DNA of 64,000 nt from an uncultured Verrucomicrobiae bacterium (lineage in GTDB: Bacteria > Verrucomicrobiota > Verrucomicrobiia > Limisphaerales > Palsa-1400). The notes under the pieces are model-generated. The model was not told the DNA's origin. It saw only the letters and a list, made by a program, of their open reading frames with translations, and did no database searches. Below are positions 8,078 to 27,901 of this stretch, piece by piece. Position 1 is the stretch's first letter, and the number at the start of each line of letters is the position of its first letter. Position numbers and translations under genes: made by a program. Where the stretch lies: positions 704,001 to 768,000 of the forward strand of contig CAVPOM010000006.1 in assembly GCA_963707025.1 (NCBI GenBank). Direction: 5' to 3'.

Positions 8078-8128
8078 GCGGGTTGTGTGCCTGCGGCCTG
8101 TGGCCGCACGGCAACTGACTGACAACAT

Positions 8129-8154
8129 GGCGGCTGGCCGCGAGGCCAGCCGCC
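8129..8154 (+). other. 11-bp GC-rich hairpin with GCGA tetraloop and no U-tract (possible mRNA stabiliser or weak terminator)
   Basis: ggcggctggcc-gcga-ggccagccgcc. Confidence 0.5.
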
Positions 8155-8182
8155 GCACCAAATAGTGCGAGAAAGAAAATCT

Positions 8183-9097
8183 ATGAACCGATCCACGGCG
8201 GACAATGCGGGTGCAACGGAGAAACGGCGCGAAGGCGCGGGGGCGGGCGTTCGCAGCCTGGTTGTGGGATTGGCCTTTTTCGCGGCCGGGGTTGCTCTGA
8301 GTGCGTTGTGGTTTATGCGCGCGCCGGCGCGTGCTCCGTCCGCGCCCGAGGACGCCGGACAGCCCGCGTTGTCGGACGCCACCAGGGCGATTCTACAGCA
8401 CCTTGCTTCACCGGTTGAAATCCGGTTTTATTCATTGCTCGATCCTGCCAGCGCCGGCGACCGCGGGCGGGAATTTTCCGGGCGGGTGGACCAAATGCTG
8501 GCGCAATACGAGCAGGAGGCCGGCGGCAAAATCAAGGTCGCGCGTGTCAATTCGATTTCTACAGCCGCGGCCAATGCGGCGGAGGCTGATGGCATCAAGG
8601 CATTCAACAGGGACAAAGGCGAGGTCTGTTACCTCGGCCTCGCGGTGGTCCGCAACGGCCACAAGGAATCTGTTCCGTCGCTGGCCCCGGAGTGGGAGCC
8701 AGCCTTGGAATCGGACCTGAGCCGCGCCATCGCGGGCGTGGCCGAGGCCGATCCCCCGGCGCAACGCATGGCCAAGGCGGATGGGGCCGCGCTGGAAGCG
8801 GTGAGACGGACCATACCGAACCTTGATGCCGTGTCAGTGGAGGAGGGTTCGCGGCTGCTGCGGGTCGCGGCGGTCGCTCAATTTAAGAAGACCGGGCAGG
8901 AAATGCAGGCCCGGGTCAAACAGGCGGAAGAACATTTTCTCCAAGCGCAAAGCAGCCAGGCCGAGGCGGAACAGGAAGCCGCCGTGAAGGACCTTGAGCA
9001 AGCCAAAAAGGAACAGGCGGCGAAGCTGAAGGAAATCGCCTTGCAGTCCAAGGCGCAAGTGGAGGCGCTGCAACAGCTCAAGGGAGCGGCCCATTGA
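8183..9097 (+). CDS. Membrane-anchored protein with a GldG-N-terminal-like domain and a C-terminal coiled coil
   Basis: One N-terminal TM helix; LSDATRAILQHLASPVEIRFYS...Y...GGKIKV resembles the GldG N-terminus; Q/E/K/A-rich heptad tail. Confidence 0.6.
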   Translation: MNRSTADNAGATEKRREGAGAGVRSLVVGLAFFAAGVALSALWFMRAPARAPSAPEDAGQPALSDATRAILQHLASPVEIRFYSLLDPASAGDRGREFSGRVDQMLAQYEQEAGGKIKVARVNSISTAAANAAEADGIKAFNRDKGEVCYLGLAVVRNGHKESVPSLAPEWEPALESDLSRAIAGVAEADPPAQRMAKADGAALEAVRRTIPNLDAVSVEEGSRLLRVAAVAQFKKTGQEMQARVKQAEEHFLQAQSSQAEAEQEAAVKDLEQAKKEQAAKLKEIALQSKAQVEALQQLKGAAH

Positions 9098-9104
9098 CGC
9101 GGCG

Positions 9105-10733
9105 ATGAGAGGCCTTCCGCGCTTGACATTCCACCGATATTCAGGAATTGCAAAGAATGTGAAGACGCTCTTGTTTGACGGCGTGGCCGGCCTGCTGGCG
9201 GCGGGGTGCCTGGCCGCGCACGCCCAGAGCGTGCCCCATCTGAGCATCACCCAGCCGGGAGGAATGCCCGGGTTGCCGGTGGTGACCGGAGTGGCGCGGG
9301 CGACCAACGGCCTGAGCGTCACCTGGGACGGCCCCTCCGGCTATTACCAACTGTTTGAAAGCGGCAGCTTGACCAACGCCAAGTGGCAGGCCGTGGGAAA
9401 AGACACCAATTTGAACCGACAAGCGACCGTCAGCATAATTTCATCCAACGAGTTCTTTCGCGTCTCGGGCCCGCCGCCCCAATACGCGGGATGGCAGGAA
9501 TGCGCGGGATGCCATTCGCCCATCTTCAACACGGTGGCGCATACCGCGCATCCGTCGGCCTTCACCAACGCGGAGTTTGTCACCGCCGGCGGCCAAAGCA
9601 ACGTCTCCTGTCTGCCCTGCCACACCGTCGGTGCCGGCTTGCCCACGGGATTCACCAGCCTGGCCAAAACTCCCAAACTGGCGGGCGTGCAATGCGAGAA
9701 TTGCCACGGGCCGGCCGGCTATCACGCCGCCAATCCCGAAGATCCAACCCTGGTGCCGCGCGTCGAAGTCGCGGCCACCGCCTGCGGCGGCTGCCATGCC
9801 CGGAGGTATGGGGAATGGGGAACCAGCCAACACGCGGTGGTGATCTCCAATCTGAACGCCAGCACACAGATTGACAACTGCGGACGTTGTCACTCCGGCA
9901 CGGCGCGCTTGAGCCTGATCCAGGGCCTGGCGCCGCTCGCAGGCGACACCGGCTTGGGAATCCAGTGCATCAACTGCCATGACCCGCATCAGACCAACGG
10001 CTACGCGGCGCAACTCCGCTATCCTTTGTCCTCGACCAACGACTATTTCATGCCCACCAACGGCGTGTTCACCAATTACTACAATGCCAGCATCAACGTG
10101 TGCGGCCAGTGCCACAATGATGCCGGGGCCTCGTGGACCAATTCCGCCGCCCCGCCGCATCTCTCGCCGCAATACAACCTGCTGTTGGGAACCGTGGGCG
10201 AACTGGACCCGCCGCTGGCGCATTTCCCGGCCTCCCATGCCACCAAGCTGACCAACCAATGCGTGGCCTGCCACATGCAAACGACGCCTTTCGTCAGCCA
10301 GGCGGCGCCTGGCGACGGCGGCCACAAGTTCACGGTGGACAGTTATGTGGTGTGCGCCGGTTGTCATGGGACCCTCGCCACAGTGCCGCAATTTATGCAG
10401 CAGGTGCAACAATTTCGGAAGGGCAATGCACTTTATCTTCAAGAGTTGACGCTGGATTTGGCTTACTGGGCGACCAACAGCGCCCCCGCGGCGCTGCGGA
10501 GCAAATACGGAACCAATGCGTGGGAATACACCGCGCCCGGCGGGTTGTCACCCGGCGCCCTTGCCGGACCAAACGCGGCCGAGCAGGCGTCAATACCCGC
10601 CAACATTCAAAGGGCGCGGTTTAATATTTACATTGTGTTCAGCGACCAAAGCCTGGGTGTCCACAACCCCGATTATGTGCTGAATCTCCTCGATCAGGCG
10701 GAAATGTGGATCGCCGACGAGCTGGCCCCGTAG
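9105..10733 (+). CDS. Secreted nonaheme c-type cytochrome, paralogue of 5711-8077; true start may be GTG 9159
   Basis: Signal peptide (...LAAHA), 9 CXXCH motifs, shared QCENCHGPA and DQSLGVHN motifs. Confidence 0.88.
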   Translation: MRGLPRLTFHRYSGIAKNVKTLLFDGVAGLLAAGCLAAHAQSVPHLSITQPGGMPGLPVVTGVARATNGLSVTWDGPSGYYQLFESGSLTNAKWQAVGKDTNLNRQATVSIISSNEFFRVSGPPPQYAGWQECAGCHSPIFNTVAHTAHPSAFTNAEFVTAGGQSNVSCLPCHTVGAGLPTGFTSLAKTPKLAGVQCENCHGPAGYHAANPEDPTLVPRVEVAATACGGCHARRYGEWGTSQHAVVISNLNASTQIDNCGRCHSGTARLSLIQGLAPLAGDTGLGIQCINCHDPHQTNGYAAQLRYPLSSTNDYFMPTNGVFTNYYNASINVCGQCHNDAGASWTNSAAPPHLSPQYNLLLGTVGELDPPLAHFPASHATKLTNQCVACHMQTTPFVSQAAPGDGGHKFTVDSYVVCAGCHGTLATVPQFMQQVQQFRKGNALYLQELTLDLAYWATNSAPAALRSKYGTNAWEYTAPGGLSPGALAGPNAAEQASIPANIQRARFNIYIVFSDQSLGVHNPDYVLNLLDQAEMWIADELAP

Positions 10734-10745
10734 CACATCGAGTTT

Positions 10746-11606
10746 ATGATAAAACGCAACCTCAGCATCCTCGCCCGGCAGGCCGAACGGCACGCCCGGG
10801 CATTGGCGCTGATGGCCGCCGCGCTGGTCCTGGCGCTGGCGGCGATCTCATGCGGCACGGTCAGCCGTTCGGTGGTGTTGCTGCCCAATGTTCCCGGCGC
10901 GAAGTACATCGGCTCCAAGGAATGCGAACAGTGTCACGACGAGCTTTACAAGGATTTTGCCACCGCGGACCACGCCCGGTTGATGGCGCCCGGAACCAAC
11001 GCCCTTAATGCCGGCTGCGAATCATGTCACGGGCCCTGCAGTGTTCACGCCGAATCCGGCGGCGAGACCCTGCCTCCCTACACCTTTAAACCAGGACGCC
11101 CGGCAACGGGCAGCTTCGGGGCGCGCCTGGCCGAAGCGCCCGCGCGCTCCACCGGGACGATGTGTTTTCAATGCCACGCCGACGTGCGCGGCGCGTTCTC
11201 CCTGCCCAGCCATCATCAGGTGCCGGAAGGCAAGCTTTCCTGCACCGACTGCCATTCGCCGCACAAGGGTTCCATTCATCTTGGCGGGGGAACTTCGATC
11301 CTGTCCGAAAATGAAACGTGCCTGCGGTGCCACGCCGCGCAGCGCGGGCCTTATGTCTTCGAGCACGAGGCCATCCGGGAAGGCTGCACCATCTGCCACG
11401 TCCCCCACGGCTCGGTCAATGCAAAATTATTGACAGTCCGCGACGCCAACCTCTGTTTGAAGTGCCACTTTCAACAGCAGACCGCGGGCGGGATAATGAT
11501 CGGCGGTTCCGATCACACCACCCGCGTCCAGCAAGGCACCTGCTGGACGGCGGGATGCCACGAGGCGGTGCATGGTTCGCGCGTCAGCCCTGCCCTGCGA
11601 TTCTGA
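10746..11606 (+). CDS. DmsE/MtrA-like multiheme cytochrome c lipoprotein (7 CXXCH + 1 CX4CH)
   Basis: Lipobox-like LAAISC, FSLPSHHQVPEGKLSCTDCHSPH, QRGPYVFEH, terminal CWTAGCHEAVHGS; directly upstream of a porin. Confidence 0.85.
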   Translation: MIKRNLSILARQAERHARALALMAAALVLALAAISCGTVSRSVVLLPNVPGAKYIGSKECEQCHDELYKDFATADHARLMAPGTNALNAGCESCHGPCSVHAESGGETLPPYTFKPGRPATGSFGARLAEAPARSTGTMCFQCHADVRGAFSLPSHHQVPEGKLSCTDCHSPHKGSIHLGGGTSILSENETCLRCHAAQRGPYVFEHEAIREGCTICHVPHGSVNAKLLTVRDANLCLKCHFQQQTAGGIMIGGSDHTTRVQQGTCWTAGCHEAVHGSRVSPALRF

Positions 11607-11618
11607 CCCAGGAAACCC

Positions 11619-13743
11619 ATGCCCATCAAATCACCGCGCGCATTCCGCAAGGCGCCCCTCCGCTGGTGCCGGGCATGGCTGCTGGGCCTTTGCGCCGCGG
11701 GCGGCGGTCTTTGCGCGGCCGACACCAATGCCCCGCCGGCCATGACCCCGGAGCAGATGTTCGAGGGCGGCACCAACGCCTACAGCAACTGGATTGATTT
11801 CACGGCGGGTCAGGCCTTTGTCAGCGGCAACAGCGCGCAATTTCAGCAGCAGCATCAAATCCCCGCTGGAACGTTTGGCGGCATCGGCGATTTCCATTTC
11901 CAAACCGGCATCGCCACCAACACCACGATGACCCTGGACGGCCATGCCATCGCGGAGAACCACGACTACCAGCTCACTCTCGGCGTCCAGCGCGAGAAGG
12001 TCGGCTTCTTGCGCCTGTCCTACGAGCAATCGCGCACCTGGTCCGACGGGGACGGCGGGTTTTTCCCGGGATCAGGACAATACTACCCGGCGGCGGACAA
12101 TCCGCTCGGGCTGGATCGCGGCAAGTTGTCCCTGGAAGGCGGATGGACGCCGGAAACGGGGCCGAAAGGTGACCTTTAAATACACGCACTCGTTCCGCGA
12201 CGGCGCCGAAGGCTCCACCGAGTGGGGCTACGCCCATGAGCCGGGCATCCCTTATGCGCAGGGACTCAGCCCGACCTTGGAGCAGAACCACGAGCACAGC
12301 GACAGCTTTCAAGTGGACGTGGCCAATCACATCAAGGCCACGGATGTCGGCCTGGGCCTCCGTTATGAGACCGGACATCTGGATGATGCGATCAAAATAA
12401 CCGAGTACCCGGGCGAGCCGGTCCAGCAGAAGATCACCGACCGCCAGGGCACGAGCTACGACCTGTTCAGTGTCCACAGCTTCACCGAGACATGGGTCAG
12501 GACCAATGTCATGTTCTCCACCGGGTTCTCCTATTCCGGCGTGGGCAACGACTTTTCCGCCAGCCGGATATACGGCAATGACTTCAACGTCGGTTACGTC
12601 CCCAATGCCAACAGCGATTTCGGCTACTACGGACTGACCGGCACATCGCGTTTGCACGATTATGTATTTGACCTGAACCTGTTCTACAAACCGTCGCCCC
12701 ATTTCACGCTCGTCCCTTCTCTGCGGGTGGATCGGGAAGATTGGAACGCGAGCAGCAGCGGTCTTGAAACCTTTGAGTTGAACACGCCCGTGCCCTTCAC
12801 CACCGACAGCTCCCGCGGCCTGATTGATCTGCGCGAGCGGCTGGACCTGAATTACAACGGCCTGACCAATTGGGCCTTCTATGGACGCGGCGATTTCACC
12901 GAGGGCGACGGGAACTTGAACCAGAACGGCGGGTTGATCCCGGTGGCCGGCTACGGAATTCCAGGCGTGGAGGAGCAGACCGATGACCGCCGCTTCTTCC
13001 AAAAATACAGCGCGGGCGCCCGCTGGTATCCCTCGCGCGGCGTCACGCTGGACGTCGGCGGTTATTACAAAATCAACCACTACCACTATGGCATCGGCCT
13101 GGACAGCACAACCAACAGCCCCGGCAGCCCGAACGAATATCCCAATTTTCTGGCCATGCAGGATTTCGAGACCTATGACGCCAATTGCCGGCTGACCTTG
13201 AGGCCGTGGCAGAACGTGACCGCCATCAGCCGCTACGAGTTCCAACTATCCACCATTCACACCGAGCCGGACCCGGCCTCGGGCCTCTCCGAGGTCGAAG
13301 CATCGCGCATGACCAGCCATATCATCGCCCAGGATGTCAGTTGGATCCCGTGGAGCCGCCTCTCCCTCCAAGCCGGCTTGAACTACGTTTTGAGCGACAC
13401 CCACACGCCGGCCTCCGACCTCACCCAGGCCATCCTCACCGCGCAAAACAACTATTGGACGGTCAACTTTTCCTCGGGCCTGGTGCTGGATGACAAGACC
13501 GACCTCAACCTCAGCTACCTCTACTACCTTTCCGGCGATTACAGCAACAATTCCCCGCTGGGGGTGCCCTACGGCGCCGGCAGCGAGGAGCACGCCCTGA
13601 CGGCGACCTTGACCCGGCGCCTCAGCCAAAGCCTTCGTCTGGCCCTCAGGTATGGCTATTTCCGCTACAACGACGCGGCCTTTGGCGCAAACCGGGATTT
13701 CGGGGCGAACCTCATTTCCGCGAGCCTGCGCTACCGGTTTTGA
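11619..13743 (+). CDS. MtrB/PioB-like outer-membrane beta-barrel porin; one frameshift at ~12165-12168, probably an error
   Basis: ORFs 11619-12179 and 11944-13743 join at ccgaaaggtg (one extra base). Signal peptide, amphipathic beta-strands, C-terminal SASLRYRF beta-signal. Confidence 0.8.
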
Positions 13744-13905
13744 ACGGCTTCTCTAAAAATGTCATGCGAGGCGCAAAAAATGGCCAGCAAAACACAATTC
13801 ACGTTGAGCAAAGAATGGCCGGCAAAGCCATCTTGAACACGATGAAACACAAATAGGCCCGCCCAACGCGGGCCTGACCGAAAACAAAACGACAAAATAA
13901 ATGCC

Positions 13906-14235
13906 ATGAAAATGAAAAAAATGCTCCTTACTTCCCTGGCCCTCGCGGCCACCACGGCGGCCGTGTCGGCTGCCGACGCTGCGGCGACTTGGGACAAGCA
14001 ATGCAAGGCCTGCCACGGCGTTGACGGAAAGGGCCAGACGGCGATGGGCAAGAAACTGGGTTTGAAGGATTTCACTGATGCCAAGTTCCAGGCCACTTTC
14101 ACCGATGTCCAGGCCACCAAGGCCATCAAGGAAGGCGTCAAGGACGGCGACAAGACCAAGATGAAAGCCGCCGAAGACGTGACCGACGCCGACATCAAGG
14201 CGCTCGTCGCCATGGTTCGCGCATTCAAGAAATAG
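13906..14235 (+). CDS. Periplasmic monoheme class I cytochrome c
   Basis: Signal peptide, CKACH, distal Met in KMKA, Lys-rich. Confidence 0.9.
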   Translation: MKMKKMLLTSLALAATTAAVSAADAAATWDKQCKACHGVDGKGQTAMGKKLGLKDFTDAKFQATFTDVQATKAIKEGVKDGDKTKMKAAEDVTDADIKALVAMVRAFKK

Positions 14236-14345: not shown

Positions 14346-15768
14346 ATGGAAGCCTCCGGCCCGGGTTGCACCACAAACCGCCTGATGACAGCCAACGCGA
14401 AATCCGGAATCACCGTCGCAGTGATGTGTGCCGCCTTCTCCGCGCTGGCGCTGGCCTTTTTGTCGGATTCGGGCGGAACGCACCTCAACCGCCCCGCCAT
14501 TGCCCTGGTGGACACCAATTTCCTGGACACCTCAACCACCCGGCGGTCCTACGCGGACTTGGTTCGGGCGGGAGCGGACCTGTCGGATTTTGACTGCTAT
14601 GTTTGTCACGATAAGAAGGCCCCCCCGCCATTGCGCCTGGACGCCCACCAGAACATCATCGTCGCCACGGAGCATGTCGGTCCCACGACGTTTGCAGCGG
14701 ATGACCTGGGCACCAACGATTTGGCCGGGATCATCAAGCGATTAAGGGGGCACTCCGATCCAGTATCCGCTTTGCTGTGGCAGGGTTTGTCAAACTCGGA
14801 GCAATTACTGCTGGTGAATTACCAGCCTGCGGAACCCAGTTCCAAGCCGGCTCAAGATTTGGTGGTGGCAGCTCTTAACAAGATCATTGCAGGACCGTGT
14901 CTTTACGAGCGCGAACGATTCAAAGGGATCTTGTTGGGAGCGGAAACGATCGTCCATCTGGCGCAAAGCCGGACAGGCCCCAACCTGGCCCATCTCAACC
15001 GCCTGCTTCTGGAAGACGCCTTTCCACTGGAATTGTCCAGGAACCGGCATGCCGACATTGTGATGGGGCACGGAGAGCACGGCCGCAACAACAATTGCTT
15101 TAACTGCCACAACGAAACCAATCTCCTCCTGCTCCAGCCCAGGGACGGGCGGGAGTTGACCTTCGCCCAAAGCACCCAATTGTGCGGCAGTTGTCACGGG
15201 CCGACCAAGGCCGACTGGGACGCGGGCGCGCATGGCCGCACCAGCGGGGATTGGGATCGTCACTCCGGGCGCCAAGGGGTACGCTGCCTTTTCAGTTGAT
15301 GAAATCAAGGATTGGCCGGGTTTCGCAAAGAAGTTGAAGGACCATTCCGATGCGGTCTCCGCTTTTCTCTGGCAGAGATTGTCCAACCAGGACCAGGAAC
15401 TGCTGAAGAGCGACCGGCCGTCAGGGCCAGGCTCCAATCCAGCTCAAGTTGCCGTGGTTCAAGTCCTGAACAAGATCATCGGAGAACCGAGTATTGACCA
15501 GGACAAGCGGTTCCAAGGCATTTTGTTGCGTCCCGAAACAACCGACCTGAGGAAAGGATCTCCGGCTGGACCCGGCTTGAGCCGCCTCAACCGGTTGCTT
15601 CTCGAAGACGCGTATCCGCTGGAATTGTCCAGGGACATGGAACGCAAGGACTGCGTGAACTGCCACAACCCTCATTACCCCCACTTTCCTTCGCGAAAGC
15701 CCGCCCCCGGCCCGCACCCATTGAGGGAGATTGACACGGCCGCCGTGGCGCAGACCGGCCAGGAATGA
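14346..15768 (+). CDS. Membrane-anchored tetraheme cytochrome c with two ~120-aa inserted domains; frameshift at ~15267-15270
   Basis: CYVCH, CFNCH, CGSCH in ORF 14346-15299 and CVNCH in ORF 15232-15768; frames join at tccgggcgcc. Confidence 0.75.
14676..15636 (+). repeat. Two diverged copies of an in-frame protein-coding insert (~14676-15050 and ~15271-15636)
   Basis: Both copies read HSD.VSA.LWQ.LSN...LNKII..P...RF.GILL..ET...LNRLLLEDA[FY]PLELSR. Confidence 0.85.
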
Positions 15769-15769
15769 T

Positions 15770-16729
15770 ATGGACAAACCACCCTCATCTCCAGCCAGGA
15801 ATCCGGGGCCCCCGGCCAACGTGATGGGGCGGCGCAGCTTCCTGCGCACCTCCGCCGTGCTGACGACGGGGTTGGCCGCGCTGGCCGCCAGCCTGAAGCC
15901 GCTGCTGGAGATGAACGATTTTCCCACCATGGAGCGGTTCCTGCAAAAGTATTACAAGGAGATGACGCCGCAGGACATGGCCAAAGTTTTGAAGCGGATC
16001 GAGGACGAAGTGGAAGAGCAGTATCACTTGCGCCCCCATGTGCGGGATTTGAAGCCCATGGACGGGGTTGATTTCGTCTATTGCCTGAACTTGACCCGGT
16101 GCATCGGCTGCCGCAAATGCGTCCACGCCTGCGTGGCGGAGAACAACCAGTCGCGCGATCCCGAAATCCAATACATCCGCGTTCTGCGGCTGCCGGACGG
16201 CTCGCTGGATATTGACAAAGCCGACCACTTCTACGCGCCGGATTCGGTGCCGGAGAAGGGCTACTTTTACATGCCGGTGCAGTGCCAGCAATGCAGGAAT
16301 CCGCCCTGCGTCAAAGTTTGCCCGGTGCATGCGACGTGGCAGGAAGCCGACGGCATCACCGTGATAGATTACGACTGGTGCATTGGCTGTCGCTATTGCG
16401 AAGCGGCCTGCCCGTATTGGGCGCGGCGCTTTAACTTCACCAAGCCGTCCACCCTGCCCAAGGAACGCCTCAACCTCGATATGTCTTATCTGGGCAACCG
16501 CCCGCGGCGCCAGGGGGTCATGGAGAAATGCCACTTCTGCATCCAGCGCACGCGCGTCGGCCGCTATCCGGCCTGCGTGGAGGTCTGCCCCGCCGGCGCC
16601 CGCAAGTTCGGCAACATTCTCGACCCGGCCAGCGAGGTCTCCTACATCCTGAGAAGCAAACGTGTTTTTATTCAGCTCAAGGAGGAAATGGGCACCGCGC
16701 CGCGCTTCTTTTACTACTTCGACGTATGA
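15770..16729 (+). CDS. Tat-exported 4x[4Fe-4S] protein (NrfC/DsrO/CbcT family)
   Basis: GRRSFL Tat motif; CIGCRKCVHAC, CQQCRNPPCVKVCP, CIGCRYCEAACP, CHFC...PACVEVCP. Confidence 0.9.
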   Translation: MDKPPSSPARNPGPPANVMGRRSFLRTSAVLTTGLAALAASLKPLLEMNDFPTMERFLQKYYKEMTPQDMAKVLKRIEDEVEEQYHLRPHVRDLKPMDGVDFVYCLNLTRCIGCRKCVHACVAENNQSRDPEIQYIRVLRLPDGSLDIDKADHFYAPDSVPEKGYFYMPVQCQQCRNPPCVKVCPVHATWQEADGITVIDYDWCIGCRYCEAACPYWARRFNFTKPSTLPKERLNLDMSYLGNRPRRQGVMEKCHFCIQRTRVGRYPACVEVCPAGARKFGNILDPASEVSYILRSKRVFIQLKEEMGTAPRFFYYFDV

Positions 16730-18465
16730 GGCGCGCCACTCGGAACTATTTTGTTTTTCTGCGGCGTTGCGCGGGCCTGGCCTTGGAGGGCGACTGGCGT
16801 TACTACGCGTGGATGGGCCTGCTCATCGTGTTCTGCCTGCTCGGCCTCAACGCTTATTGCCGGCAGTTTGCGCATGGCCTGATCGTCACCGGGATGAGCG
16901 ACGAAGTTTCCTGGGGCGTTTACATTGCCAACTTCACTTTCCTGGTCGGGGTGGCGGCGGCGGCCGTCATGATGGTCATCCCCGTTTATATCTATAAGAA
17001 CGAGGACCTGCATGACTTGGTCATCTTCGGAGAACTGCTCGCCGTGGCGGCGATCCTGATGTGCCTGGCCTTTGTCACCGTTGACCTGGGGCGGCCGGAT
17101 CGCTTCTGGCATCTGATCCCTGGAATCGGGCAATTCAACTTTCCCAAATCCATGCTCAGTTGGGACGTCCTGGTGCTCAACGGCTATCTCTTGCTCAACG
17201 TCCACATTTGCGGCTATCTGCTCTACTGTCGCTATCGCAAGGTTAAACCGGCCAAATGGTTTTACATTCCGTTTGTGTTCATCGCCATCGTCTGGGCTGT
17301 CTCCATCCACACCGTCACCGCCTTTCTCTATGTGGGTCTGGGCGGGCGGCCATTTTGGAATTCTTCCATCGTTGGACCCCGTTTCCTGGCCTCCGCCTTT
17401 ACCGCGGGTCCGGCTCTGATCATCCTGGCCATGCAGGTCGTGCGCCGCGTCACCTCTTCCTCTTACATGGCCGCCAGCCCGCCCGGCGAGGGCAGCGGTC
17501 CCATGCCGCAACCCAAACGCCGCGCCGCCACCATCGCCGACTTCGCTCTGCTGTGCCGCCATCTTCCCGAAATGGCCTCGGTGCCGGGCGAGGCCGGCCA
17601 GCGGGCTTTGGCGACGGCGGAAGTCCTGGAGGCCCAGCCTGGCGATGCGGTTTTGCGCCAGGGAGAAACGGAGGCTCGGGCCTTCTTTATCCTGCGCGGC
17701 ACGGTGGTGGTGATACGTCAGGAAGCCGGGCGTTTTCGGGTCACGCGCACGGCAGGACCGGGGGAACAGGTGGGAGAGGTTTCGGCTCTCCATGCCACCC
17801 CGCGCATGGCCAGCGCCATCGCCGAAGAACCCAGCCTGGTCTTGAGCTTCACCGCCGATGCCTTGCGCCTGCTCATGGAATCCACCCAGGTCAACAAGAT
17901 CGTCCGGTCCAGAATGTCCGAGCGGCTCCTCATCACCGATCGCGCCCTCATGACCCTGCGCAGCATCGTGCAGGTTTCCATGCTCATCAACGTCTTCTTG
18001 CTCGTCAACGAAGTCTTCAAGGAATTCTATTCGGGCAACCTGCATGACGAGTCCTCCAAATACCTCTTTGTCGGCCTGGACGGCCATCACGCCCTGGTGC
18101 CCTGGATTTGGACCGCCATCGCCTTCAACCTGACGGCCATGGTCCTGCTGGTCCTGCCGGTCAGCCGCAGCCTCAAATGGCTCAACCTGACCTGCGTCCT
18201 TTGTATTGTGGGCATCTGGATCGAAAAAGGCATGGGCTTGGTCATCCCCGGCTTCATCCCGACGCCCCTGGGCGAAATGATGGAATACCGGCCTTCCCTC
18301 AACGAGACCCTGGTTTGCTTTGGCATCTGGGCCTTCGGACTGCTCTGCTACACGGTTTTCCTCCGCATGTCCGTGCCCATTCTCCAGGGACGATTGTCCA
18401 GGGAGAACGAAGGCGCGCCGAGCCGGTCCATTCGGGCCGCCGTCCCCGCCTCCCCTCAGGGCTGA
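16726..18465 (+). CDS. NrfD/PsrC/DsrP-family quinol-interacting membrane protein with an inserted cNMP-binding domain
   Basis: TGMSDEVSWGVYIANFTF, VDLGRPDRFW, SIHTVTAFL; insert QGE...FFILRGTV...GEVSAL...PRMASA. Confidence 0.88.
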   Translation: MRRATRNYFVFLRRCAGLALEGDWRYYAWMGLLIVFCLLGLNAYCRQFAHGLIVTGMSDEVSWGVYIANFTFLVGVAAAAVMMVIPVYIYKNEDLHDLVIFGELLAVAAILMCLAFVTVDLGRPDRFWHLIPGIGQFNFPKSMLSWDVLVLNGYLLLNVHICGYLLYCRYRKVKPAKWFYIPFVFIAIVWAVSIHTVTAFLYVGLGGRPFWNSSIVGPRFLASAFTAGPALIILAMQVVRRVTSSSYMAASPPGEGSGPMPQPKRRAATIADFALLCRHLPEMASVPGEAGQRALATAEVLEAQPGDAVLRQGETEARAFFILRGTVVVIRQEAGRFRVTRTAGPGEQVGEVSALHATPRMASAIAEEPSLVLSFTADALRLLMESTQVNKIVRSRMSERLLITDRALMTLRSIVQVSMLINVFLLVNEVFKEFYSGNLHDESSKYLFVGLDGHHALVPWIWTAIAFNLTAMVLLVLPVSRSLKWLNLTCVLCIVGIWIEKGMGLVIPGFIPTPLGEMMEYRPSLNETLVCFGIWAFGLLCYTVFLRMSVPILQGRLSRENEGAPSRSIRAAVPASPQG

Positions 18466-18476
18466 CCACCGCTCCG

Positions 18477-18917
18477 ATGTCAAGAAGACTTACAGCCGAT
18501 GACGCCAGGCAATCGTTGAGCGCCCATGTCGCGGGCAGAGGCGCCGAAATATTTGAAAAATATGGACCGCGCATCGGCTGGAACGAGTTGCTGCGCATTC
18601 TGGAAGACCGCGCCTGCGTCCGCTACCCCTGCAAGGCCGCCTTCGACGCCGCCCCGCTGCAACCGGGAGAGTGCGCCTATGCCAGGGCAAATAGCGTCCA
18701 GCCCGAAGACGGATTTGTGATTTACATCCATCCTCTCTTCATGACGCAGATGGACCGGGTGGCGCACCTGGCGCTCTATCAGTTGGCCGTTGTCAACTAT
18801 GGGGAGTTCGCGTCCCCGGATGACGCGGAGGCTTTTGGCGCGGCCGCCCTGGGCATTTCCCGGGAACAGTACTATCAGGGCCTTTGTCAAATGGCCGGTT
18901 TGCTCGAAGAACAGTAA
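18477..18917 (+). CDS. Hypothetical protein (146 aa)
   Basis: ATG 11 nt after the nrfD stop; ordinary globular composition. Confidence 0.6.
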   Translation: MSRRLTADDARQSLSAHVAGRGAEIFEKYGPRIGWNELLRILEDRACVRYPCKAAFDAAPLQPGECAYARANSVQPEDGFVIYIHPLFMTQMDRVAHLALYQLAVVNYGEFASPDDAEAFGAAALGISREQYYQGLCQMAGLLEEQ

Positions 18918-21285: not shown

Positions 21286-21747
21286 ATGTCGCGCTTGCTT
21301 AAAATGCCGCCGCAACTGGTCCGCCTGGTGCTGCTGACCATTGGGATCGTGTGCGTTTATTTCGTCGCGCGCTACTTCCTGGCGCCCCCGTCCTTTGGGC
21401 AATACGGCCATTACCGGGCGGCCGCGTTGCAGGAGATCGCCGCGCGCCAGCCCTATTGGGCCGGCAAGGCGGCGTGCGTGGAATGCCATGCCGCCCATGC
21501 GGAGAAGCTGGCCAAAGGCGAGCACAAGAACCTTTCGTGCGAAACCTGCCACGGCCCCGGCCAGGCGCATGTGGCCAATCCCCCCGAGAAACTGCCCAAG
21601 CTCGACATGAGCCTTTGCGTGCGGTGCCATGAGGCCAGCCCGTCCAAACCGAAATGGCTCCATCAAATCAACAGCCACGACCATTACACCGGGAATCTTT
21701 GCACCGAGTGCCATGTTCCCCACCAACCCAAGGAGGTTCCACCATGA
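21286..21747 (+). CDS. Membrane-anchored tetraheme cytochrome c (CbcS-like)
   Basis: N-terminal TM helix; CVECH, CETCH, CVRCH, CTECH. Confidence 0.85.
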   Translation: MSRLLKMPPQLVRLVLLTIGIVCVYFVARYFLAPPSFGQYGHYRAAALQEIAARQPYWAGKAACVECHAAHAEKLAKGEHKNLSCETCHGPGQAHVANPPEKLPKLDMSLCVRCHEASPSKPKWLHQINSHDHYTGNLCTECHVPHQPKEVPP

Positions 21748-22550
21748 GCGAGCAGATCACCCGGCGCACCATCCTGAAGAATCTGGCTGGAATAGTCGGA
21801 GGTATTCTTGCCTTGCCGGCCGCCCGCACCTGCAAAGCGGGGGTGCAAAACCTTCTGGCCTCATCTCCCGCCCCGTCCGGCTACGATCCGTTCGAGCACA
21901 AATGGCTGATGGCGCTGGACGTGGACCGGTGCATCGGCTGCGGCCGTTGCGTGGAAGCTTGCTGCGAGGAGAACGGGGTGCCGGAAGGCCACTGGCGCAC
22001 CTGGATTGAACGCTACGTCATCACCAGGCCCAAGGCAGGCTCCGGCGAGACCCGCGGGGCAACGTTTGTGGACTCACCGGATGCCGGGAGATATGGCTTT
22101 CCGCAGTTGCTCATTCCAAAGGAGGACATTCTCAAGTCGTTCTTTGTCCCCAAACTCTGCAACCTGTGCGAGCATTCGCCCTGCACCCAGGTCTGCCCGG
22201 TTGGGGCCACCTTCGACGCCCCGGACGGCGCGGTGCTGGTGGACAAGAATTATTGCATCGGCTGCGGTTTTTGCATCCAGGCCTGCCCGTACGGATGCCG
22301 CTTTTTTAATCCGCAAACCCACACCGCCGACAAATGCAACCTGTGCTACCATCGGATTACCCGCGGCCTCAAGCCCGCCTGCGTGGAGATTTGTCCCTCG
22401 CAGGCCCGGGTTTTCGGCGATCTGAAACACCCCGTGCCGGACGATCCGCTGCAAAAATTCATCAACGAGAACAAGGTGGAAGAGTTGAAAAAAAGCCTGG
22501 GCACCGGTCCGCGCGTGGTCTATGCGGGCCTGGACGAGGAGGTCCGATAA
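21744..22550 (+). CDS. Tat-exported 4x[4Fe-4S] protein (NrfC/CbcT-like)
   Basis: TRRTIL twin-arginine motif; four ferredoxin cluster motifs; ATGA overlap with the upstream stop. Confidence 0.88.
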   Translation: MSEQITRRTILKNLAGIVGGILALPAARTCKAGVQNLLASSPAPSGYDPFEHKWLMALDVDRCIGCGRCVEACCEENGVPEGHWRTWIERYVITRPKAGSGETRGATFVDSPDAGRYGFPQLLIPKEDILKSFFVPKLCNLCEHSPCTQVCPVGATFDAPDGAVLVDKNYCIGCGFCIQACPYGCRFFNPQTHTADKCNLCYHRITRGLKPACVEICPSQARVFGDLKHPVPDDPLQKFINENKVEELKKSLGTGPRVVYAGLDEEVR

Positions 22551-23809
22551 TGAGCGCCGCCATTCTCACCAACGTCGTGGAGGCGCTCCCGCAGTTCCAA
22601 GGCTACGTCTATCCCAACGAACGGACGCTGCATCCCCTGTGGAGTGTGCTCATCGTGGTCTATCCCTACATCACCGGTTTGGTGGCGGGGGCTTTCATCA
22701 TGGCCTCGCTGGTGCGGGTTTTCAAAGTCAAGGCGCTGGAGCCGATTTACCGGCTGGCCCTGTTGACGGCGCTGGCCTTCATGCTCTGCGCCACCTTGCC
22801 CCTGCTGTTTCACCTCGGCCATCCGGAACGCTGCTTTGAAATCATGATGACGCCGCACTTCAGTTCTCCCATGGCCATGTTCGGCTTCGTCTATGCCTGG
22901 TACCTGATGGCCGTGCTCCTGCTCGAACTTTGGTTTGACTACCGCCGGGACTTTGTCGCCTGGTCCAAGACGGCGGCCGGTTTGCGCGGCATCCTCTACC
23001 GCGCCTTCACCTTGGGAGTGACCGACCTGTCCGAGCCGGCGCTGCGGCTGGATGCCCGCATGGGCCGGATCATTTCCATCGTCGGCATTCCGTCGGCCTT
23101 TCTCTTGCACGGTTATGTCGGTTTCATTTTCGGCTCGATCAAGGCCAATCCCTGGTGGGGCAACCCGCTGATGCCGATTATTTTCATTCTTTCCGCCGTG
23201 GTGTCGGGCATGGCGCTGTGCGTGTTCGCCTACATGTTCCTGTGCTGGGCGCGACGCATCACGGCAGACATGCGGTGCCTGGATTTGATGATCAGCTTCC
23301 TTTTTTATGCCGTGGTGCTGGATGCGACCATCGAAGGGCTGGACTGGCTGCACCGGCTTTATTCGGCGGAGGAGGGGATTGAAGTGCTCAAGTCGGTGGC
23401 GTCGAGCAAGCTGTTTTACACGCTGCTCATCGGGCAGGCCTGCCTGGGCACGCTGGTGCCGCTCCTGCTCCTGGGAACCATGCAACTCATCCGCAAAAAA
23501 GTCGCGGAGTTGAATCGCCGCCGCGTCTATTTCTCCAGCACGGTGCTCATCCTGATCGGCGTGCTGGCCATGCGGTGGAATGTGGTCATCGGCGGCCAGC
23601 TTTTTTCCAAGAGCCTGCGCGGTTTCATGAGCTACAAAATGGAGTTCGCCGGCCACGAAGGCTGGTGGCTTTCCCTCGCGCTGCTCGCCCTTCCTTTTGT
23701 CATTTTGACGGTGTTCATCAAGTATTTTTTGGACCGGGACCTGCCCACGCTGGAGAACGTGGTTCCGGGCGCGCCGCCGCGGGCGGGTTCGCCCCCGGCG
23801 CCGGCTTGA
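22550..23809 (+). CDS. NrfD/PsrC-family membrane protein (CbcU-like)
   Basis: WSVLIVVYPYITGLVAGAF, HLGHPER, SPMAMFG, LHGYVGFIF, RWNVVIGGQ; TAATG coupling. Confidence 0.88.
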   Translation: MSAAILTNVVEALPQFQGYVYPNERTLHPLWSVLIVVYPYITGLVAGAFIMASLVRVFKVKALEPIYRLALLTALAFMLCATLPLLFHLGHPERCFEIMMTPHFSSPMAMFGFVYAWYLMAVLLLELWFDYRRDFVAWSKTAAGLRGILYRAFTLGVTDLSEPALRLDARMGRIISIVGIPSAFLLHGYVGFIFGSIKANPWWGNPLMPIIFILSAVVSGMALCVFAYMFLCWARRITADMRCLDLMISFLFYAVVLDATIEGLDWLHRLYSAEEGIEVLKSVASSKLFYTLLIGQACLGTLVPLLLLGTMQLIRKKVAELNRRRVYFSSTVLILIGVLAMRWNVVIGGQLFSKSLRGFMSYKMEFAGHEGWWLSLALLALPFVILTVFIKYFLDRDLPTLENVVPGAPPRAGSPPAPA

Positions 23810-23903
23810 GATTTGGCCGCGTGTGGCGCGGCCTCGGTTTTCCCGGCGGGTTGGAGTTCGCCGCCGGGAAACACGCAAAAAAACCCGGACTCCCGGAGGA
23901 ACT

Positions 23904-24233
23904 ATGAAAAGAAAGATAATAATTGCAGCGGTCATCGGCATGATGGCGGCCGGGGTGGCTTACGCGCAGGACGACAGCAAGGCGTTGTACGAAAAGAGCT
24001 GCCAAAAGTGCCATGGCGCGGACGGCAAGGGCCAGGTCACAATGGGCAAGAAGCTCGGGTGCAAAGATTACAGCGACGCCAAGGTCCAGGATGCGTTGAA
24101 GGACGACGTGGCGCTCAAGTCCATCAAGGAAGGACTGAAGAAGGGTGACACGACGTTGATGAAGCCCGCCGAGGGCCTCACCGACAACCAGATCAAGGGG
24201 CTTGTCAAGTACATGAGGACCTTCAAGAAGTAA
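23904..24233 (+). CDS. Periplasmic monoheme cytochrome c, paralogue of 13906-14235
   Basis: GGAGG RBS, signal peptide, CQKCHGADGKGQ..MGKKLG. Confidence 0.9.
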   Translation: MKRKIIIAAVIGMMAAGVAYAQDDSKALYEKSCQKCHGADGKGQVTMGKKLGCKDYSDAKVQDALKDDVALKSIKEGLKKGDTTLMKPAEGLTDNQIKGLVKYMRTFKK

Positions 24234-24305
24234 AAGCGCCCAGGGCGTGAATCTGTGTTGGAGCAGCCCCGCAATGGGTTGCTCCAACACTCCCGCCCCC
24301 CAACC

Positions 24306-25790
24306 ATGGACACACTTCCTCCAACCGGCCCGGCTCGCCTGCCTTCCCTGTTCCGCAACTGGGTTTCCCTGGCGGGGATGGTGCTCATGGCTTCGAGCAT
24401 TTTCGCCTTTCTCCTCTTGTTCTTCCTGGACACGATGGCGTATTCCTCCAATCCGTACGTGGGGATCCTGACGTTCTTTGTGGCGCCGGCCTTCTTTTTC
24501 GCGGGGCTGATCGTGTTTCTTTTTGGAGCGTGGCGCTGGCGGAGGAAGATGGCCAAAGCCAATGGCGGCGCGGGCGCGTTGCGCATCAACATAGACTTCT
24601 CGCGCCCCCACGACCGGCGGGTGCTGGCCTTCTTTGTTCCAGCCAGCGCGGGCTTCCTCCTCCTCACGGCGATGGGCAGCTACCACACCTATCATTTCAC
24701 CGAATCGGTGCAGTTTTGCGGGGAGTCCTGCCATACGGTCATGAAGCCGGAGCTGATCAGCTACCTCCATTCGCCGCACGCCAGGGTGGCCTGCGCGGAA
24801 TGCCACATCGGCGCGGGGGCCACCTGGTACGTGCGCTCAAAATTGTCTGGCACCTACCAGGTTTATGCCACCCTGGCCCACAAATACCCCACGCCCATTC
24901 CCACCCCGGTCAAGAATCTGCGGCCCGCCCAGGAAACCTGCGAGCAATGCCATTGGCCCAAGAAGTTTGTCGGCAACCTGGACCGCACCCTCTCTTATTA
25001 TCTCCCGGACCAGTCCAATTCCCTCTACACCGTCCGCCTCCTGCTCAAAGTCGGCGGCGGGGACCCGACGCATGGGCCGCTGGGCGGCATTCATTGGCAC
25101 ATGAACGTGGCCAACAAAATCGAATACATCGCCACCGATGAGGCCCGCCAAAAAATCCCCTGGGTGCGCATGACCGACCCCCAGGGCGTGGTGACCGAGT
25201 ATCGGACCAAGGAATTCACCAATGACGTCAGCCAGGCGCCCAAGCGCAGGATGGACTGCATGGATTGCCACAACCGGCCCGCCCACAAGTTCCAGTCCCC
25301 GGAAAGCGCGGTCAACCTGGCCATGTCGCTCAGCAACATTGATATTTCGCTGCCCTACATCAAGACCAACGCCGTCGGCGTCCTCTGCCGCCCCTACACC
25401 AACCAAACCGAAGGCCTGGAAGGCATTGCCACCACCTTGTCGGAACGATTCCCCAAAGATCCGCGCATCCGCGGGACGATCGCAGCGGTGCAGGATATTT
25501 ACACGAACAATTTCTTCCCGGAAATGAAAGCCAGTTGGCGCGACTACCCGGACAACATCGGGCACAAGGACTTTCCCGGCTGCTTCCGCTGCCATGATGG
25601 CAAGCACATTTCCAGCGCCGGCCGCGACATGATCAAGGCCAACGACTGCAACGCCTGCCATCTCATTTTGGCCCAGGGCAGCGGCGCGCAGTTGAACCAA
25701 GTCAACGCGGAGGGCCAGAAGTTCGCCCATCCTTTCGATGAATATGATCCAGCTTACCAATGCACCGACTGCCATAACGGCGGCTTGTAA
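24306..25790 (+). CDS. imcH: ImcH-like heptaheme inner-membrane cytochrome c with a NapC/NirT domain
   Basis: Three N-terminal TM helices; FCGESCH (CX3CH) plus 6 CXXCH; RPAQETCEQCHWP, GIHWH, GCFRCH. Confidence 0.78.
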   Translation: MDTLPPTGPARLPSLFRNWVSLAGMVLMASSIFAFLLLFFLDTMAYSSNPYVGILTFFVAPAFFFAGLIVFLFGAWRWRRKMAKANGGAGALRINIDFSRPHDRRVLAFFVPASAGFLLLTAMGSYHTYHFTESVQFCGESCHTVMKPELISYLHSPHARVACAECHIGAGATWYVRSKLSGTYQVYATLAHKYPTPIPTPVKNLRPAQETCEQCHWPKKFVGNLDRTLSYYLPDQSNSLYTVRLLLKVGGGDPTHGPLGGIHWHMNVANKIEYIATDEARQKIPWVRMTDPQGVVTEYRTKEFTNDVSQAPKRRMDCMDCHNRPAHKFQSPESAVNLAMSLSNIDISLPYIKTNAVGVLCRPYTNQTEGLEGIATTLSERFPKDPRIRGTIAAVQDIYTNNFFPEMKASWRDYPDNIGHKDFPGCFRCHDGKHISSAGRDMIKANDCNACHLILAQGSGAQLNQVNAEGQKFAHPFDEYDPAYQCTDCHNGGL

Positions 25791-27901
25791 GGCGGCGCGC
25801 CGGGCCATTTGCGCGCTCGCCTTCCTGTCCTTGCTCCAGGCGGGCCGCCTCGCCGCGCACATTATCTCCAACCAGGATTGCCTGGAGTGCCACCGTGATC
25901 CCACCACCGCGCGCACCGTCGCCGGGAAATCCGTGGCGCTGGCGGTATTCGACACCAATGCCTTTCAGAAGTCCGTGCATGCCCGGCTCAATTGCACCGA
26001 CTGCCACAACACCGTCAAAGAGCTGGTGCATCCGGGCGGACTGCCCCCCGCCCAATGCGCCTCGTGCCATTCTTCCGAGACGGCCCAATACGTGGGCAGC
26101 ATCCACGGCATGAGCAAGGCCCGGGGGGCCTCCGCGGCCGCCGGGTGCGCGGACTGCCACGGCACCCACGGCATCGTTTCTGTCAAGAATGTAGATTCGC
26201 CCGTTTTCAAGCTCAACCTGTCGGTCACCTGCGCCAAATGCCATAGTGAACCCGGGCTGACCAGCCGAGTACCGGATGAAGTATCCGCTGGTGGCCAGCC
26301 AGTACACCGACAGCATCCACGGGCGGGCGCTGATGAAAATGGGATTGATCGTGGCCCCTTCGTGCAACGATTGCCACGGCACGCACGACATCGGGCGGAG
26401 CGTGGACCGCAGTTCGCCCATCAACCACGCCAACGTCGCCGCCACCTGCGGCAAATGCCATCTGGGGATCGAAAAAACCTACAACGCCAGCATCCACGGG
26501 CAGCTTCTGGCCAAGGGCGGGCAAAACGGCCCGGTCTGCGTGGATTGCCATTCCGCCCATCAAATCACCGAGCCGGACGGCAGCAATTTCAAGGCGGCCA
26601 GCGACGAGAAATGCGGCAGTTGCCACCAGGACCGGCTGGCGCATTATCGCGACACCTACCACGGCAAGGCGATGTTGCTGGGCCGGCCCAACCTCGCCCC
26701 CGAAGTGGCGGCGTGCTACGACTGCCACGGCCATCACGACGTGCTGCCGCGGTCCGATCCGGCCTCGCATCTTTCCAAGGCCAATATCGTGGCCACCTGC
26801 CAGAAATGCCATCCGGGCGCCAACGCCAATTTTGCCAAATACATCCCCCACGCCAATCCGCTCGACGCCCAGCACTATCCGCAGTTGCATTGGACCTTCT
26901 TGGCGATGACGGCGCTGTTGATCGGCGTCTTTGCCTTCTTCGGCGCGCATACCGGCCTGTGGCTCTTCCGCTCCGGTTACCTATGGGCGCACGACTCGAA
27001 AACTTTCCGCGAAGCCAAGATCAAAACCCAACAAAGCGATGAGTGGTTCACCCGCTTCCCGCCCTTTGAACGGCTGCTGCACTTTCTGGTGGTGACCAGT
27101 TTTCTCCTGCTGGTCCTGACCGGCATGCCGCTCAAGTTTTACTATACCAGTTGGGCCAAAGTCATCTTCGCGTTGCTGGGCGGCCCGGAAACGGCCCGCT
27201 TCCTTCACCGCACTGGCGCGGTCATTACCTTCCTCTATTTCGGTCTGCACCTGGCCAAGCTGCTCCTTAGGTCCTGGCAGGCCCGCGGCCGCTTCCGCGG
27301 CGGCGACTGGCACTCCAAGTGGACCCGGCTGAAATGGGCGCTGTTCGGTCCCGACTCGATGATTCCAACCTGGCAGGATGTGAAGGAATTCATGGCGCAC
27401 CAGAAATGGTTTTTCGGCCAGGGGCCCAAGCCGCAATTCGACCGGTGGACTTACTGGGAGAAGTTCGATTACTTCGCCGTGTTCTGGGGGGTCTTTATCA
27501 TTGGAGCGTCGGGGTTGGTCATGTGGTTCCCGCAGTTCTTTTCCTATTTTCTGCCGGGCTGGACCATTAACATCGCGCTCATCATTCATTCCGACGAAGC
27601 CCTCTTGGCGGCGGGTTTCATCTTCACGATTCACTTCTTCAACACCCATTTTCGCCTGGAGAAATTTCCCATGGACACCGTGATTTTTTCCGGCCGCATT
27701 TCCAAAACCGAAATGCTGCATGAACGCCGGCGCTGGTACGAGCGGCTCCTGGCCGCCGGACGCCTGAACGATCTGCGTGTCAAAGACGAATGGGAACGCT
27801 GGAAAGCCATCGCCCGCGCCTTCGGCTTCCTCTTTTTCGGCGCCGGCATCGTCCTGCTGGTTTTGATCATCTACGCCATGGTCACGCGCCTGGCGCACTG
27901 A
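25738..27901 (+). CDS. cbcL: CbcL-like fusion: 11-heme periplasmic domain plus cytochrome b membrane domain; frameshift at ~26261-26265
   Basis: 5 CXXCH in ORF 25738 and 6 in ORF 26276; ERLLHF..LVLTGMP, RWTYWEKFDYFAVFWG, IIHSDEALLA, IHFFNTH. Confidence 0.78.

Follow-up and report, generated by a model that had tools for sequence, protein, structure and literature searches.

A cyclic-nucleotide-binding domain inserted into a DsrP-like membrane subunit of the NrfD family in Verrucomicrobiota

The locus described here lies in a 64,000-nucleotide stretch of DNA, hereafter the window, from an uncultured soil Verrucomicrobiae bacterium of the order Limisphaerales (GenBank assembly GCA_963707025.1, contig CAVPOM010000006.1, positions 704,001 to 768,000 of the forward strand). 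At 16726..18465 on the plus strand, the window encodes a DsrP-like membrane subunit of the NrfD family into which a cNMP-binding domain is inserted. This protein of 579 amino acids (aa) has ten predicted transmembrane (TM) helices, and its start ATG shares an ATGA with the stop codon of the upstream gene for an iron–sulphur (FeS) subunit. An earlier note, made from the letters of this DNA alone, had described an in-frame insert of about 160 aa with a CAP/cNMP pattern between AMQVVRRVT and ITDRALMTL. Both flanks and the motifs that it quoted are present, and its coordinates were almost exact: 17455-17931 corresponds to residues 244-402, and the insert comprises residues 245-402. Public annotation of the homologues is limited to 'HybB-like' or 'NrfD/PsrC family membrane anchor'.

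The protein consists of two parts of a membrane core, all encoded on the plus strand together with the linker and the cyclic-nucleotide-binding (CNB) domain that separate them. The N-terminal membrane core (residues 1-244, 16726..17457) begins with the extra helix A, continues with TMH1-4, which form the first four-helix bundle, and ends with TMH5. Next come a flexible, fast-evolving linker of low model confidence and low identity (residues 245-271, 17458..17538) and the CNB domain (residues ~272-402, 17539..17931), which is made up of N-terminal helices, a beta-roll and the helices 377-383 and 387-398 and contains a phosphate-binding cassette (GEVSALHATPRMASAIA, residues 350-366, 17773..17823). 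The C-terminal membrane core (residues 403-579, 17932..18462) supplies TMH6-8 of the second bundle and helix B.

In Pfam searches, NrfD (PF03916) matched residues 54-244 (E 1.6e-36, 127 bits against a cut-off of 25.8), the N-terminal core covering profile positions 2-203 of 313, and cNMP_binding (PF00027) matched residues 302-386 of the whole protein (E 1e-15). Searched alone, the insert segment passed the cNMP_binding hidden Markov model with 61.1 bits against a cut-off of 27.5 (E 1e-16), spanning profile positions 3-88 of 89. The C-terminal half of the membrane core, which lies beyond the Pfam NrfD match, was picked up by the NCBIfam DsrP equivalog NF045798, with 411.9 bits against a cut-off of 350 in two stretches: ahead of the insert the match covers profile positions 5-216, and past it 215-344. 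Because these pieces abut in the profile, the insert interrupts an otherwise complete DsrP-like protein from which nothing has been removed. Alignment with insert-less orthologues delimits a single clean block of ~157 aa between RRVT and ITDRAL, in place of which these orthologues carry a three-residue turn. The second NrfD protein of the window (22544-23806) has a contiguous Pfam NrfD match over residues 32-354 and no insert, as the earlier note had read it.

An AlphaFold2 model of the 579-aa protein, built on a 77-row alignment, reached a predicted local distance difference test (pLDDT) score of 87.2 and a predicted template modelling score of 0.85. It places six TM helices ahead of the insert (24-50, 65-88, 93-121, 143-170, 177-203 and 216-243) and four past it (405-435, 458-481, 483-510 and 525-554). 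The CNB domain was modelled with pLDDT 80-95, and the linker with block means of 64 and 53 for residues 241-260, falling below 50 at residues 251-255. A connector of six residues (399-404, pLDDT ~75) joins the CNB domain to the next TM helix. Structural comparison matched the predicted membrane core to ActC, from alternative complex III (6btm_C; Z-score 38.7, root-mean-square deviation (rmsd) 2.9 over 374 residues), and to PsrC of polysulfide reductase (2vpw_C; Z-score 21.7 over 240 residues); the results of Foldseek for the membrane core and the insert agreed with this. The model shows the fold of the NrfD family: the eight common helices form two four-helix bundles, and helices A and B are added to them.

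For NrfD members with ten helices, Calisto and Pereira (PMC8076601) describe eight common helices, TMH1-8, which form two four-helix bundles and are flanked by the extra helices A and B, with the N- and C-terminus both on the N-side. With both termini on that side and six helices before it, the insert, between TMH5 and TMH6, comes to lie on the N-side, that is, in the cytoplasm. Lysine and arginine residues number 13 in the predicted cytoplasmic loops, excluding the insert, versus 6 in the periplasmic loops, and the twin-arginine signal of the FeS partner agrees with a cytoplasmic placing of the insert. The cytoplasmic loop that the earlier note had suggested from basic residues is thus borne out by the helix count, the homology to ActC and the positive-inside count, all of which agree. 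The same source, in its available text, locates the P-side quinone site on TMH2 with a protonatable residue, Asp106/110 in DsrP, and describes an N-side half-channel in TMH1-4 with a gate where the half-channels meet (PMC8076601). In the window protein, D120 at the periplasmic end of the third helix is nearly invariant in our alignment (A1); it may be equivalent to the strictly conserved Asp of the DsrP quinol site, with which it agrees in position.

The predicted structure of the insert resembles CNB domains in their ligand-bound form. It superposes on the CNB domain of MloK1 with cGMP (3cl1_A; Z 17.0, rmsd 2.1 over 126 of 130 residues), and on Rv0998 with cAMP and PKG I-beta with cGMP (Z 15.8 each). 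Predicted strands fall between residues 299 and 376 and are followed by the helices 377-383 and 387-398, in keeping with the eight-stranded beta-roll and flanking helices of the CNB fold. Phmmer searches of the insert against the Protein Data Bank returned PKG (5.5e-14) and PKA RI-alpha (6.5e-8) ahead of Crp/Fnr proteins (~1e-4), and the cassettes of PKG and PKA align with that of the window protein, which is of the Gly-Glu ... Arg-x-Ala-Thr/Ser type (GEVSALHATPRMAS).

In CNB domains, the set of Gly, Glu, Arg and Thr/Ser residues contacts the ribose-phosphate. Among 45 insert-bearing sequences, G350, L355 and T/S363 are conserved in all 45, E351 and R360 in 44 each and A364 in 43, so the Glu and Arg that the earlier note had seen retained in the window copy are kept family-wide. 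The strict cassette pattern is found at 52 of the 56 insert-bearing loci of species-representative genomes; of the four misses, one is truncated at the end of its contig, and in the other three inspection by eye shows Gly-Glu and Arg retained.

We favour, with moderate confidence, the reading that the CNB domain is a cAMP/cGMP sensor tuning the quinol turnover of a three-subunit quinol:cytochrome complex. The same reading takes the membrane core, which has ten helices and no cofactor motifs, as DsrP does, to be the quinone-interacting, cofactor-less part of that complex. An alternative, which we consider unlikely, is that the CNB fold senses some other ligand or none and acts on the cytoplasmic side as a module for docking or dimerisation, pairing complexes or recruiting partners. 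Some members of the CRP/FNR superfamily bind ligands other than cAMP or cGMP, and domains of CRP/FNR type do occur among the matches of the insert (2gau, Z 15.6; the Crp family at E ~1e-4). The residue after the cassette Arg is also variable, being Thr in 24, Met in 9 (the window type), Val in 7 and another residue in 5 of the 45 sequences. Precedent for a docking role exists in the DsrP-DsrP contacts that hold the DsrMKJOP decamer together, as described in the available part of a preprint (10.64898/2026.08.25.746951). However, the best sequence matches are true cNMP binders, PKG and PKA, far ahead of Crp/Fnr, and a purely docking function would have to be reconciled with a cassette whose Gly, Glu, Arg and Thr/Ser persist in 44-45 of the 45 sequences.

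Close relatives exist in both states. The insert-less orthologues G010, G011 and G277 are 82-86% identical to the window protein in their N-terminal halves and 75-80% identical in their C-terminal halves, and their operon is the same. A careful tree of the membrane core, with 33 rows and the insert columns removed, groups 18 insert-bearing and 3 insert-less rows in one clade (support 92/98) and requires at least three changes of insert state. The approximately unbiased test rejects a single insert clade at p 0.011, for a group defined by the trait itself. A quick tree of 94 rows needs seven changes of insert state, and starred branches force at least five of these; of the 76 further loci considered for it, 2 without an open reading frame (ORF) of ≥380 aa were left out and 10 were identical to existing rows. 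Both trees were drawn from sequences other than DsrPh and CbcU. Taken together, the insert-less orthologues and the patchy presence on the core tree mark the domain as an optional add-on, most simply a regulator.

Repeated precise deletion was considered as the cause of this patchiness and judged unlikely, as all 18 nested insert-less rows keep an x-Tyr-x turn; Tyr or Phe also occupies the aromatic position of the turn in 13 of the 15 insert-less rows outside the insert clade. We infer instead that allele or cassette exchange by recombination is the more plausible explanation of the patchiness. Insert-bearing and insert-less rows differ most clearly at core positions 406 and 239, both of which adjoin the junction, and the next best are 172 and 91, in cytoplasmic loops, and 160, inside the TM helix 143-170. 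These positions hint at co-adaptation to a docked domain or at linked ancestry, and are compatible with either. An apparently larger insert, in an Opitutales metagenome-assembled genome (MAG), proved to be two tandem insert-less paralogues; this DsrP-like pair (L110:195-2734) is reminiscent of the ActC/ActF pair.

Selection on the different parts of the protein was compared by the ratio of non-synonymous to synonymous substitution (dN/dS; Nei-Gojobori, 12 sequence pairs). The N-terminal core gave 0.041-0.087 (mean aa identity 0.87), the C-terminal core 0.040-0.181 (0.83), the CNB domain 0.087-0.349 (0.61) and the linker 0.25-1.2 (0.35). These ratios indicate that the CNB domain is maintained by purifying selection, less strictly than the core. 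They bear on a further alternative, in which the insert is a mobile cassette that rides along as a passenger in a loop tolerant of insertions and has little or no effect on the complex. Its patchy presence on the core trees (three changes in 33 rows, seven in 94), the conservation of the same operon around insert-less orthologues and the faster evolution of the CNB domain relative to the core would all suit such a passenger. However, the dN/dS of the domain is 0.09-0.35 rather than about 1, a value approached by the linker next to it. The residues of the ligand site hardly vary, and 56 of 76 species-level loci, with titles naming Limisphaerales, Opitutales and Verrucomicrobiales, retain the domain. 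All of this makes the passenger reading quite improbable.

The architecture recurs widely. Both Pfam domains are present in 120 of the 120 listed homologues, the best 120 of 8000 scored candidates, which come from JGI, ENA, NCBI and Logan assemblies and are 77-91% identical, except for one 468-aa fragment encoded by the window itself. A full-length, collinear, insert-bearing copy occurs in 16 of 41 genomes of the same genus, family and order. In an even phylum sample of 401 genomes, 15 have a DsrP-like match at E <= 1e-30, 4 of them insert-bearing and 11 insert-less. Species-representative genomes yielded 557 relatives, whose best 76 loci include 56 with the insert, 19 without it and 1 partial, labelled as Limisphaerales/Pedosphaera, Opitutales/Opitutaceae and Akkermansiaceae/Verrucomicrobiales. 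In the Atlas, clusters were found in which 100% of the members carry both domains, with Verrucomicrobiota as their taxa. The combination of NrfD and CNB is not rare but common in Verrucomicrobiota databases. Three loci carrying the gene (L041, L096 and L100) come from MAGs labelled Bifidobacteriaceae or Klebsiella pneumoniae, probably through errors of binning or labelling.

Contigs from other samples cross the insert junctions: an exact contig of 171 nt spans 17388-17558, and two diverged ones, of 703 and 1977 nt, extend over 17278-17979 and 17335-18465. A further contig connects 17450 to 17938 through 19 other letters and represents an insert-less relative. Among the read sets listed for the gene there was none of RNA, and the best DNA set contains a third of the sampled words and leaves parts of the gene uncovered. 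That the insert arose as an assembly chimera or mis-join in the MAG, which the earlier note had raised against its own reading, is excluded for practical purposes: three apparent frame breaks in neighbouring genes show that the assembly is not error-free, but the ORF is intact and collinear from end to end with homologues of many independent assemblies, and independent contigs run across both junctions.

The gene belongs to an operon on the plus strand. Directly upstream, at 15770..16729, lies the gene for a DsrO/NrfC-like FeS subunit with four clusters and the twin-arginine signal RRSFLR, a predicted periplasmic partner; its start, at 15770, is the first ATG after the upstream stop. This subunit matches Fer4_11 and other Pfam families and scores 168 bits with the NCBIfam DsrO model, below the cut-off of 200. 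It is preceded by a membrane-anchored tetrahaem cytochrome c with four CxxCH motifs (14346..15768), which in this assembly is read in two frames, 14346-15299 and 15232-15768. The cytochrome contains two copies of an extra domain of ~120-150 aa without Pfam match, one between haems 1 and 2 and the other between haems 3 and 4, which are 46% identical to each other over 152 aa. The cytochrome of the relatives is a compact one-frame tetrahaem protein; most lack the extra domains, and one (G003) has only the first. Directly downstream of the DsrP-like gene, at 18477..18917, a conserved 146-aa protein is encoded, predicted to be cytoplasmic and without a signal peptide. It has 25 invariant columns among 12 sequences and is present with and without the insert. 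No Pfam or NCBIfam match was found for it, and the Atlas returned only unnamed Verrucomicrobiota clusters, the nearest named ones scoring 0.80-0.82, which is chance level. Its possible roles are those of a fourth subunit or of an assembly factor; a complex prediction with the DsrP-like protein, run without controls, scored 0.00 and carries no weight either way. A monohaem class I cytochrome c at 13906..14235, matching Cytochrom_C in Pfam, has homologues near the operon in several relatives and is a possible periplasmic redox partner.

The order of tetrahaem cytochrome c, FeS and DsrP-like genes is the same in 13 of 13 relatives' loci (L002-L014), insert or not, and the 146-aa gene comes next in 11 of them, the other two stopping at a contig end. 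By gene content, the adjacent tetrahaem cytochrome c, four-cluster FeS and NrfD-type genes form a tetrahaem/FeS/NrfD quinol module. In the window's own genome, 87.95% complete, dsrA was not found, and no DsrK was found at the cut-off (best 39.3 bits versus 400). As dsrA and a qualifying DsrK were both missing from this search and the partners are a tetrahaem cytochrome and the 146-aa protein, the complex is not DsrMKJOP. Of the NrfD/DsrP identity that the earlier note had assigned, the likeness to DsrP stands, the profile being matched above its cut-off; the protein nevertheless does not belong to a DsrMKJOP complex.

The operon is embedded in a respiratory island spanning 5711-14235 and 21286-27898. 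Upstream, on the same strand, are three multihaem cytochromes whose domain matches are MtrC/MtrF-like, a protein with DUF7088, a 599-aa ORF and a monohaem cytochrome, one of two monohaem cytochromes in the island; the 599-aa ORF has no Pfam match and might, at a guess, be an outer-membrane barrel. Downstream are another NrfC/NrfD pair, a cytochrome of the NapC/NirT type and a fusion of multihaem cytochrome and cytochrome b561 that is CbcL-like. Judged by these sequences, the island looks like a set of parallel quinol dehydrogenases with periplasmic or outer cytochromes. Iron reduction with multihaem cytochromes is reported for cultured Limisphaera in the available text of PMC13608581, which we take as a lead only. 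Three apparent +1/-1 frame breaks occur within ~16 kb, at ~12170, 15232-15299 and ~26276, splitting barrel-like ORFs (11619-12179 / 11944-13743), the cytochrome c and the b561 fusion (25738-27042 / 26276-27898). They may be assembly indel errors rather than marks of pseudogenes, and the DsrP-like ORF itself is intact despite its frame-broken neighbours.

Enzymes that could supply a ligand are encoded in most of the genomes concerned. A class III cyclase (PF00211) is present in 18 of 19 insert-bearing genomes, the exception being 64% complete. The window's own genome encodes seven CNB-domain proteins and one class III cyclase that we found, a 990-aa CHASE2-cyclase (G000:C18:153870-156842; L034:1371-4343). 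The cyclase gene is followed by that of a 784-aa Ser/Thr protein kinase.

In the mechanism that we propose, the tetrahaem cytochrome c, the Tat-exported FeS protein and the DsrP-like subunit would form an inner-membrane complex conveying electrons out of the quinone pool and on to cytochromes of the periplasm. TMH5 and TMH6 are the first two helices of the second four-helix bundle; in one clade of Verrucomicrobiota, the tight turn that connects them on the cytoplasmic side has given way to a floppy linker and a complete CNB domain. Class III cyclases would make cAMP or cGMP, which the phosphate-binding cassette would bind. Binding of cNMP repositions the lid helices in CNB domains, and here it would move the C-terminal lid helices, a movement that the six-residue connector would relay to TMH6 and to the membrane core at its cytoplasmic face. 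As a result, quinol turnover or a coupled proton path would be switched or tuned post-translationally. The identity of the domain, its place and sidedness, its conservation and selection, its optional nature and its operon context are shown by the data above; the identity of the ligand, the coupling of CNB domain to core and the direction of the effect are inferred elements of this scheme.

Several observations weigh against a sensor of this kind. The cyclase is equally common without the insert (11 of 13 genomes), so its co-occurrence is not discriminating. Close orthologues lack the domain, which means that the complex works without it, and the CNB domain evolves about four times faster than the core. 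The window copy has Met after the cassette Arg, the commonest residue in relatives being Thr (24 of 45). The positions associated with insert state come from related sequences and may reflect ancestry, not contact. Finally, the operon's cytochrome gene contains a frame break, and if that break is real, this copy may be impaired.

A bolder form of the sensor reading, which we offer only tentatively and hold to be doubtful, is that a second messenger (cAMP or cGMP) would bind the quinone-site subunit of an inner-membrane quinol:cytochrome c oxidoreductase directly and so turn a single member of a set of parallel quinol dehydrogenases, in an island for extracellular electron transfer, on or off within seconds and without transcription. 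It would act through the six-residue TMH6 link and by docking onto first-bundle loops on the cytoplasmic side, where the N-side proton half-channel of NrfD proteins is proposed to open, and the sensor would be a cassette that lineages exchange within an enzyme otherwise unchanged. As far as is known, respiratory chains are controlled mainly by transcription and substrate availability. If the sensor reading holds, the protein would provide a direct post-translational link from signalling to membrane energetics, situated in the quinone-handling subunit, as well as a handle on whether the cofactor-less NrfD subunits change conformation in a way that matters for function and whether their proposed proton pathways are used. 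Coupling in NrfD proteins and DsrMKJOP is called untested in the available parts of PMC8076601 and 10.64898/2026.08.25.746951. The natural pairs of insert-bearing and insert-less orthologues are ready-made matched controls. Record titles show many members of the family in genomes of peat, soil and freshwater origin, and such a switch, if true, could bear on carbon and metal cycling. No publication on an NrfD/DsrP plus cyclic-nucleotide-binding architecture was found in a search that left most subscription journals outside its reach. We class the protein as an NrfD-family subunit combined with CNB-type regulation, widespread but unstudied, with each part of a known kind.

Among known systems, DsrP of DsrMKJOP is alike in scoring above the DsrP cut-off, in its ten helices without cofactor motifs and in its DsrO-like FeS partner. 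It differs in that a tetrahaem partner here takes the place of DsrJ and in that the CNB insert has no counterpart in the DsrP profile. The DsrOhPh-tetrahaem complex of cable bacteria and others and Cbc4 of Geobacter sulfurreducens have the same three parts as the window operon. The function of the former is given as unknown, with electron transfer from quinol to the periplasm proposed, in the available text of PMC13047784 and 10.64898/2026.08.25.746951, and Cbc4, composed of CbcS, CbcT and CbcU, is proposed to pass electrons from quinol to periplasmic cytochromes (bioRxiv 10.1101/2025.04.14.648717, available part). Unlike the subunit with the CNB insert described here, the membrane subunits of these two complexes have no regulatory domain mentioned in the available portions of those sources. 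The cable-bacterial locus further contains TMH1, where the window operon has the conserved 146-aa fourth gene instead.

ActC of alternative complex III (6btm_C, 8k9e_C) and PsrC (2vpw_C) are the best structural matches of the membrane core. Both have the two four-helix bundles in common with it, and ActC also shares the extra terminal helices. However, identity is only 14-20%, the complexes are different, and neither protein has a soluble domain in the loop between TMH5 and TMH6.

With respect to the sensor, the channels MloK1, SthK and HCN/CNG and the Na+/H+ exchanger SLC9C1 likewise have a cytoplasmic CNB domain tied to a TM helix, and the mode of action proposed here is modelled on theirs. 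In these proteins, the CNB domain is C-terminal and coupled via an N-terminal linker, whereas here it is internal and connected via its C-terminal helix; they are channels or a transporter, and the host here is a subunit of a redox complex. The bacterial cAMP-regulated acetyltransferase Pat / Rv0998 (4avc, 4avb) is controlled directly by a fused CNB domain that resembles the insert (Z 15.8, ~24% identity, also an NCBIfam match). It differs in being a soluble protein with an N-terminal fusion.

Fusions also occur among other DsrP-like relatives, to a C-terminal cytochrome c (P0133) or to an FeS subunit (P0203). A further DsrP-like protein, P0129, has 566 aa, a core 52% identical to that of the window protein and a C-terminal pair of CBS domains on the cytoplasmic side. 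Its 90%-identity cluster comprises 24 members from several contigs. P0129 differs in having CBS instead of CNB domains, placed past the last helix, and is likewise uncharacterised; here a nucleotide sensor has been fused, independently, on that same side of a DsrP-like protein.

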